From: Escherichia coli
GTDB taxonomy: Bacteria; Pseudomonadota; Gammaproteobacteria; Enterobacterales; Enterobacteriaceae
DNA: 64,000 nucleotides
Reading direction: 5' to 3' (one strand)
Assembly (NCBI RefSeq): GCF_003334255.1
Contig: NZ_QOWU01000023.1
In this document: positions 23,992-24,664 of the stretch, piece after piece
Numbering within the stretch: position 1 is the first letter of the stretch
Layout: every line of letters starts with the position of its first letter
The notes under the pieces: generated by a model
The model's database searches: none
What the model saw: the letters and a program-made list of their open reading frames with translations, nothing else
Told to the model about the DNA's origin: nothing
Made by a program: the position numbers and the translations under genes

Positions 23992-24076
23992 GGTGGGGTT
24001 CCCGAGCGGCCAAAGGGAGCAGACTGTAAATCTGCCGTCATCGACTTCGAAGGTTCGAATCCTTCCCCCACCACCA
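23992..24076 (+). tRNA. tyrT: tRNA-Tyr (anticodon GUA), first tandem copy
   Basis: 85-nt sequence GGTGGGGTTCCCGAGCGG...CTGTAAATC...CCCCACCACCA with encoded CCA. Confidence 0.95.
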
Positions 24077-24285
24077 TAATTCACCACAGCGATGTGGTAA
24101 CTTCGGTGAGATTGTGAAAGTTTGCACTCATCGGGGAAGGGTGAGAACCTTCGACTAAGGTTCGATTCGAGCGAAAGCGAGAGAACGTTGCCACAGGCAA
24201 CGGCCCGAAGGGTGAGGAGCGAAGCGACGAATAATCCTTCCCCCACCACCATCTCAAGCATTACCTCAAAATTTGAATTACCCCT

Positions 24286-24370
24286 GGTGGGGTTCCCGAG
24301 CGGCCAAAGGGAGCAGACTGTAAATCTGCCGTCATCGACTTCGAAGGTTCGAATCCTTCCCCCACCACCA
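24286..24370 (+). tRNA. tRNA-Tyr (anticodon GUA), second tandem copy
   Basis: Identical 85-nt sequence, 294 bp after copy 1. Confidence 0.95.
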
Positions 24371-24579
24371 TAATTCACCACAGCGATGTGGTAACTTCGG
24401 TGAGATTGTGAAAGTTTGCACTCATCGGGGAAGGGTGAGAACCTTCGACTAAGGTTCGATTCGAGCGAAAGCGAGAGAACGTTGCCACAGGCAACGGCCC
24501 GAAGGGTGAGGAGCGAAGCGACGAATAATCCTTCCCCCACCACCATCTCAAGCATTACCTCAAAATTTGAATTACCCCT

Positions 24580-24664
24580 GGTGGGGTTCCCGAGCGGCCA
24601 AAGGGAGCAGACTGTAAATCTGCCGTCATCGACTTCGAAGGTTCGAATCCTTCCCCCACCACCA
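24580..24664 (+). tRNA. tyrV: tRNA-Tyr (anticodon GUA), third tandem copy
   Basis: Identical 85-nt sequence, 294 bp after copy 2. Confidence 0.95.

Follow-up and report, generated by a model that had tools for sequence, protein, structure and literature searches.

The tyrT operon in the window, which is the whole 64-kb stretch of DNA that was analyzed, was found to carry three identical tRNA-Tyr genes, one more than in its nearest relatives, the strains G6/7 and G8. Such three-copy arrays were rare among complete genomes of E. coli and recurred in other lineages. We consider it probable, at about 0.6, that the array had two copies until recently and gained one 294-bp unit when its two tRNA genes underwent unequal homologous exchange.

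Structure of the array, its trailing repeats, and its flanks

Within the 64-kb window, three tRNA-Tyr genes with the anticodon GTA were predicted by ARAGORN on the + strand, and no further tRNA was detected besides these three (Table 1). Each copy matched the Rfam tRNA model RF00005 with 53.4 bits, the gathering score being 29, and Tandem Repeats Finder described the array with a period of 294 bp, 2.9 copies, and a score of 1376. The region was also split at every copy of the 19-nt tRNA 3' end. The order parsed in this manner was T-S-tT-S-tT-R1-R3-R3. Here, T stands for the tRNA of 85 nt, S for the 175-nt part of the spacer, which ends in a pseudo tRNA 3' end, and tT for a tail of 34 nt joined to the tRNA; the 178-bp units are denoted R1 and R3. 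No base differed between the two spacer-plus-tRNA units, which measured 175 + 119 = 294 bp each. ARAGORN, Rfam, Tandem Repeats Finder, and unit parsing thus agreed with the preliminary description, according to which three identical 85-nt tRNA-Tyr genes recur at intervals of exactly 294 bp. Chance could by no means account for three perfect 85-nt copies spaced so regularly.

Table 1. Features of the tRNA-Tyr array and its surroundings (positions in the window)
Feature	Position	Strand	Evidence or remark
purU (formyltetrahydrofolate deformylase), upstream flank	22990–23832	+	Coordinates from TOP10 locus L004
Predicted tyrT-type promoter	23914–23941	+	-35 TTTACA, 16-nt spacer, extended -10 TG-n-TATGAT
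tRNA-Tyr(GUA) copy 1, tyrT position	23992–24076	+	ARAGORN, Rfam, identity with MG1655 tyrT
Spacer 1, 209 bp	24077–24285	+	Rfam, unit parsing
RtT-like element of spacer 1	24120–24251		RF00391, 132.9 bits; ends in the 19-nt tRNA 3'-end copy
tRNA-Tyr(GUA) copy 2 (middle)	24286–24370	+	ARAGORN, Rfam
Spacer 2, 209 bp, same sequence as spacer 1	24371–24579	+	RtT-like element at 24414–24545
tRNA-Tyr(GUA) copy 3, tyrV position, followed by the 178-bp repeats	24580–24664	+	ARAGORN, Rfam, unit parsing
Repeat R1	24665–24842	+	Same as MG1655 R1; RtT at 24711–24842
tpr ORF, 29 codons, protamine-like, intact, inside R1	24732–24821	+	
R3-type repeat in the place of R2	24843–25020	+	9 differences from R2 of MG1655, G6/7, and G8
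Repeat R3	25021–25198	+	Same as the preceding unit and MG1655 R3
narI, downstream flank	25382–26059	-	Coordinates from TOP10 locus L004

The 85-nt tRNA unit had the sequence of tyrT and tyrV of MG1655, including the encoded CCA end (...CACCACCA). The head of the spacer read TAATTCACCACAG..., and its tail read ...AAATTTGAATTACCCCT. As the spacer flanks the middle tRNA on both sides, this arrangement is diagnostic for three or more copies. Judged from its sequence, the locus is the tyrT operon by every feature tested, copy number excepted.

Directly 3' of the tRNA array, Tandem Repeats Finder detected a second array with a period of 178 bp and 3.1 copies, in which three 178-bp RtT repeats span 24665–25198. 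Five matches to the RtT model RF00391 were obtained above its gathering score (132.9–137.5 bits), namely, one in each spacer and one in each 178-bp unit. The preliminary description of the array was accurate, but the RtT elements of the spacers and the trailing 178-bp repeats were absent from it. The tail of the window was R1-R3-R3, whereas that of MG1655, G6/7, and G8 was R1-R2-R3, and the stretches specific to R2 read ...GAACTCTCAAGCGAATCC... and ...CGACTAAGGTTCGGCTCGAGCGTCAGC.... By eye, the ORF equivalent to tpr in the R3 units seems to be shortened, since T replaces C at unit position 95 and would give TGA. T is also present at unit position 95 in R1 of TOP10.

Upstream of the array, a consensus scan found a promoter-like site with 10 of 12 consensus matches. 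Its sequence was identical to that upstream of tyrT in MG1655, and it is predicted to function as the promoter. It was the sole candidate, as no further sigma-70-like promoter was found inside the array or its spacers in the same scan; this agrees with the earlier claim that a single tyrT-type promoter precedes the array. No intrinsic terminator was found on the + strand of the array region. The array sits between purU and narI, on the strand of purU. The coordinates of these two genes could be transferred from the TOP10 locus (L004), which is collinear with positions 11755–41753 of the window without indels.

Strain background and copy number among genomes

MG1655 has two copies only, tyrT and tyrV, followed by R1-R2-R3, and the K-12 arrangement given in the preliminary description was therefore correct. 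An origin of the window from K-12 itself was ruled out by 11 SNP positions relative to MG1655 over approximately 42 kb of flank, which were counted apart from the differences in the array and the ldr repeats. The window also had no IS5 between ychE and oppA, and it had one ldr module rather than three. The lineage of the window is, as far as the flanks indicate, a close relative of K-12 and phylogroup-A-like.

The IS5 that MG1655 has between ychE and oppA is missing at about 12116–12119 of the window. The ldr/rdl toxin-antitoxin module is single at 41200–41800 (rdl at 41450–41515 on the - strand). One copy is likewise present in G6/7 and G8, and three tandem 535-bp copies are present in MG1655, TOP10, Origami2-DE3, and GF124.3. 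The module is a second tandem-repeat copy-number difference within the window.

When a 15.9-kb flank was used as the query, perfect matches were obtained only in G6/7 and G8, which are human commensals from the faeces of healthy people in Germany. Outside the array, these strains differed from the window at 2–4 positions in about 50 kb. Their array was T-S-tT-R1-R2-R3, that is, two tRNA copies of the MG1655 type. Within the array cluster, the window therefore differed from G6/7 and G8 in two respects, namely, the extra 294-bp unit and the second R3 replacing R2. In the alignment against E. coli reference genomes that had been proposed as a check, MG1655, G6/7, and G8 each had one unit fewer than the window.

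Downstream of the array, only 54522, 54869, and 63925–64000 differed between the window and G8. These comprised a 1-nt indel, apparently between ychF and ycgV, one SNP, and a loss of the alignment over the last 70 or so bases of the window, inside treA.

Copy number was determined in a collection of 5,426 complete E. coli genomes, to which the source genome of the window does not belong. A plain BLAST query was unusable for counting because pieces of two-copy arrays tile a three-copy query. The query for counting was thus limited to 255 nt, consisting of the middle tRNA and 85 nt of spacer on each side, and single full-length alignments only were accepted at a strict E-value. Single-copy arrays were counted with a junction-specific query that ran from the leader through the tRNA into the head of R. 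The junction counts are lower bounds, as an array could escape if its identity to the query fell below about 91%. The middle-tRNA junction was present in 13 of the 5,426 genomes, at one place each, and three tRNAs were present in 12 of these (0.2% of the collection). In the thirteenth, MB51, the third tRNA was lost and the second spacer was retained. No second middle-tRNA junction, and hence no four-copy array, was found in the 5,426 complete genomes. Single-copy arrays were present in at least 196 genomes. The frequencies in E. coli were at least 3.6% for one copy, about 96% for two copies, apparently the state of the remaining genomes, and 0.2% for three copies, with singlets approximately 16 times commoner than triplets. 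In addition, about 100 of the 5,426 genomes had a doubled spacer part (tRNA-RtT-RtT-tRNA). With these counts, and with two copies in the nearest relatives, the initial interpretation of the array as a copy-number variant was supported.

Among species-representative genomes, the doublet pattern was matched in 25 Enterobacteriaceae species. Exactly two tRNA-Tyr genes with a period of 280–299 bp were present in 24 of them, and the locus of the 25th was cut at the array. No triplet was found among 100,044 species-representative genomes, although many of these are drafts from short reads, in which a triplet would be collapsed. Since 24 of the 25 species had the doublet and none had a triplet, the doublet is regarded as the ancestral state.

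Three-copy genomes other than laboratory strains were ETEC H10407/SEC470, EcPF16, GF4, GF124.3, ET474, CH4784, and O157:H7 F1273, and three-copy laboratory-strain assemblies were those of TOP10, XL1-Blue, XL10-gold, and Origami2-DE3. In the RefSeq annotation, the known triplets are given as three tRNA-Tyr genes. The duplicated units were identical within each triplet genome and differed between lineages. H10407 had a private SNP in both spacers and an intact R1-R2-R3-like tail, while in EcPF16, GF4, ET474, and CH4784 both tails carried a private SNP. O157:H7 F1273 had its own 294-bp unit (u17), which was present twice. The number of trailing repeats in the triplet genomes ranged from 1 to 4. 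As the units were the same within a genome while lineage SNPs and tails differed, several independent in-place duplications are indicated rather than one old allele. This points to the triplet arising repeatedly, recently, and in place, in line with the earlier suggestion of a strain-specific state due to unequal crossing-over. Compared with the other triplets, the window shared the three tRNA-Tyr genes, the 294-bp period, and the one promoter, whereas the unit SNPs and tails differed. The sole sharers of its exact array were the laboratory-strain series, the flanks of which are of K-12 and not G6/7-like.

The array of the window was 100% identical over 1,701 bp to arrays of other genomes, and GF124.3 had the same spacer and tRNA units. 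Both observations would be expected if the three-copy allele were old and had reached this lineage by descent or, through homologous recombination, from another E. coli. However, we regard such an origin as highly improbable. The flanks matched those of G6/7 and G8 up to the edge of the array, with neither an imported SNP tract nor a donor tract, and the units of the window were those of its two-copy relatives. Triplets of other lineages, with their own SNPs and different tails, also argue against an allele held in common. Moreover, the 100% matches were K-12 laboratory assemblies with different flanks; Origami2 had 13 differences, K-12 alleles included.

The R3-R3 junction was present at an identity of at least 99% in 29 of the 5,426 complete genomes, among them J53 and some K-12 clones from mouse gut. 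In the mouse-gut K-12 series, sister clones showed R2 mosaics. The order R1-R3-R3 originated either by gene conversion, by loss plus duplication, or by a polishing error.

Origin of the additional unit

Starting from the ancestral doublet, the two identical 85-bp tRNA genes would mispair between sister chromosomes or during the repair of a break or gap. If tyrT of one chromosome copy then recombined with tyrV of the other by homologous exchange, one triplet and one singlet would result. The 85-bp tRNA would be the only long identical sequence of the doublet able to misalign and gain a unit. The novel junctions of the window array all lay within sequence identical between the repeats. The extra unit was an exact copy, G6/7 and G8 had one unit fewer, and single-copy loss alleles were present in the population. 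As singlets are the predicted reciprocal product, their existence fits unequal exchange. Once formed, the triplet would offer 379 bp of direct homology (tRNA-spacer-tRNA) compared with 85 bp in the doublet. Thus, a triplet should revert to two copies more easily than it forms and would stay rare. Easier loss, together with additional routes of loss, would also fit the observation that singlets outnumber triplets approximately 16:1.

The same array could also be explained, with a lower probability than that of a real duplication, by an artefact of assembly or polishing. The strain would then truly have two tRNAs and R1-R2-R3, and a graph assembler or a local re-assembly would have passed two times through both the spacer-tRNA loop and the R3 loop, skipping R2. 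For all values of k up to 86, the two-copy array of G6/7 contained every k-mer of the window array, and the window array is thus a valid alternative walk of the same de Bruijn graph. Real recombination predicts the same containment; therefore, the k-mer result does not discriminate between the two. Both array-cluster differences from G6/7 and G8 fell in one repeat cluster with near-identical flanks, as an artefact would have it. An assembly artefact had already been named as a refuting outcome in the preliminary description, and this alternative gains some weight from the coupled change of R2 to R3 and from the k-mer containment. The mouse-gut K-12 clones of one series also varied in their R2 state, as repeat mis-polishing would give. 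On the other hand, an array of 1.2 kb is spanned by long reads, for which a length error of 294 bp is untypical, and at k=127 the two-copy array holds no collapsed repeat. Real triplets also exist, as in ETEC H10407, where the tail is R1-R2-R3-like and a private SNP is present in both spacers.

The laboratory-strain assemblies bear on the same question. Outside the window, the triplet together with R3-R3 was found only in the assemblies of TOP10, XL1-Blue, and Origami2-DE3 (CP080620, CP081007, and CP084529). In XL10-gold (CP081008), the triplet was present, and an inversion after R1 cut the trailing repeats. Identical input arrays, such as those of K-12 and G6/7, would yield identical wrong output, and the double change did recur in these assemblies with neighbouring accessions. 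Moreover, the series conflicts with independent assemblies, as two copies were found in XL1-Blue CP132550 and in DH10B. TOP10 is held to be closely related to DH10B. DH1 had two copies, and DH5alpha records were not among the 13 junction-bearing genomes. In favor of a real change, a single additional base of the R3 type was present in R1 of TOP10, which would not be expected if the artefact were strictly deterministic.

The four K-12 laboratory triplets were considered as independent support for the window array and were rejected, owing to their close accessions, the two copies in the independent XL1-Blue and DH10B assemblies, and stop codons in rssB and narG. The record named TOP10 had stop SNPs in both genes, and both were also present in the XL1-Blue record of the series, whereas DH10B had neither. 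The rssB stop was shared by 52 genomes of the DH1/DH5alpha/XL1-Blue group. This discrepancy between TOP10 and DH10B reflects either a difference in strain history or a labelling problem in the assembly series. In the TOP10 locus (L004, CP080620), the stops were located at 20945 and 29281; in the DH10B locus (L049), both genes were intact.

Further observations were made in the same assemblies. In the XL10-gold locus (L009, 24711–25300), the first trailing RtT unit was followed by tRNA-Cys, tRNA-Leu, and yecA, an order that implies an inversion or rearrangement with its apparent breakpoint in an RtT-like repeat. The array searches returned 1–15 matching places per genome (median 3), and related repeats seem to be present at other loci. 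In XL1-Blue (L006) and XL10-gold (L009), a phage integrase was located beside kch or tonB, and the integrase of XL10-gold was the same protein at the same site as that of the lacZ-carrying prophage of DH10B. A phi80 prophage is not known to be part of the listed genotypes of XL1-Blue and XL10-gold. The cluster is a spot where complete assemblies of the same or related laboratory strains disagree, and its copy number and unit order need read-level confirmation before interpretation.

A point against a simple duplication is that a second rare change, R1-R3-R3, was present in the same array. Together with the triplet, it requires that a lineage separated from G6/7 and G8 by no more than a few SNPs underwent recombination at least two or three times. 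A shared cause is suggested by the occurrence of both rare changes within a single cluster of 1.2 kb at such a short distance. In a further reading, the extra unit and the change from R2 to R3 would be one complex repair event, and the allele may have been kept by a benefit of additional tRNA-Tyr; we judge this combination to be quite improbable. Both changes could have been generated by synthesis-dependent repair that was out of register and switched templates, or by a burst of hyper-recombination, and more tRNA-Tyr may be of help where toxins or defence nucleases deplete it. If this were true, the tyrT-rtT cluster would be a fast-switching dosage locus and not a passive repeat.

Returning to the addition of one unit by unequal exchange, all three tRNAs and the five RtT elements would be co-transcribed from the lone tyrT promoter, and the transcript of the tyrT operon would contain three tRNA-Tyr1 sequences rather than two. 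The third copy could be expected to raise the output of tRNA-Tyr1 and RtT. K-12 has tyrU elsewhere, and if the strain of the window also has it, four tRNA-Tyr genes would result.

It was also considered that the extra copy is real and has been kept by selection for more tRNA-Tyr, instead of being a neutral transient product. Such selection could be driven by faster growth or by a need to make up for tRNA-Tyr lost to nucleases. As indirect support, phages are reported to overcome retron defence with tRNAs that they supply, the tRNA-Tyr of the T5 phage family being named for retron 78. In Pseudomonas fluorescens SBW25, duplications by which tRNA gene dosage increases are likewise reported to be selected. 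However, the triplets, at 0.2%, were scattered over single tips without an expanded clade, the doublet is conserved across genera, and single-copy arrays were about 16 times as frequent as triplets. Retention by selection is therefore unlikely.

Comparison with known systems

Equivalent triplets are already present in public genomes, and the phenomenon is of a long-known kind. Its value is mostly that of a calibration point. Although Enterobacteriaceae conserve the tyrT doublet, one, two, or three copies are found in E. coli, which makes the locus a compact natural example of the gain and loss of tandem tRNA genes.

The closest known system is the tyrT-tyrV operon of MG1655, which consists of tyrT, tyrV, rttR/tpr, and the 178-bp repeats. 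The window shares with it the position between purU and narI and the promoter sequence. Moreover, the tRNA, spacer, R1, and R3 units are identical, and the tpr ORF is intact. The window differs from MG1655 in one extra 294-bp spacer-plus-tRNA unit and in the replacement of R2 by a second R3.

Russell et al. are said to have described in J Mol Biol in 1970 that single-gene phi80 phages segregated from the tandem su-III (tyrT) doublet by unequal recombination. The locus and the proposed mechanism are the same as in the window, and the triplet would be the reciprocal product. The phi80 work dealt with losses on phage genomes, whereas the window represents a gain in the chromosome, for which population frequencies are given here. 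In a literature search, no published description of a chromosomal tyrT triplet, or of the laboratory-strain assemblies, was found.

In laboratory populations of Pseudomonas fluorescens SBW25, tRNA gene dosage is reported to have risen through large-scale tandem duplications (PMC7661048, PMC10954465). In the first of these, the duplications followed the deletion of a tRNA gene (PMC7661048). In SBW25 and in the window alike, tRNA copy number was increased by tandem duplication. In contrast to the large-scale events in SBW25, the window gained a 294-bp unit of a pre-existing array, without a sign of selection.

Within E. coli, the doubled spacer units and single-copy arrays are exchange products of the same short identical segments, namely, the 19-nt tRNA 3' end, the 85-nt tRNA, and the constant part of the 178-bp unit. 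In FORC 064 (locus L001, 1260–1813), a 175-bp spacer part is doubled between two tRNAs, and a doubling of this type results when the tRNA 3' end recombines with the 19-nt copy of it that lies in the spacer. These variants alter the number of RtT elements or lose a tRNA, whereas the window adds a tRNA.
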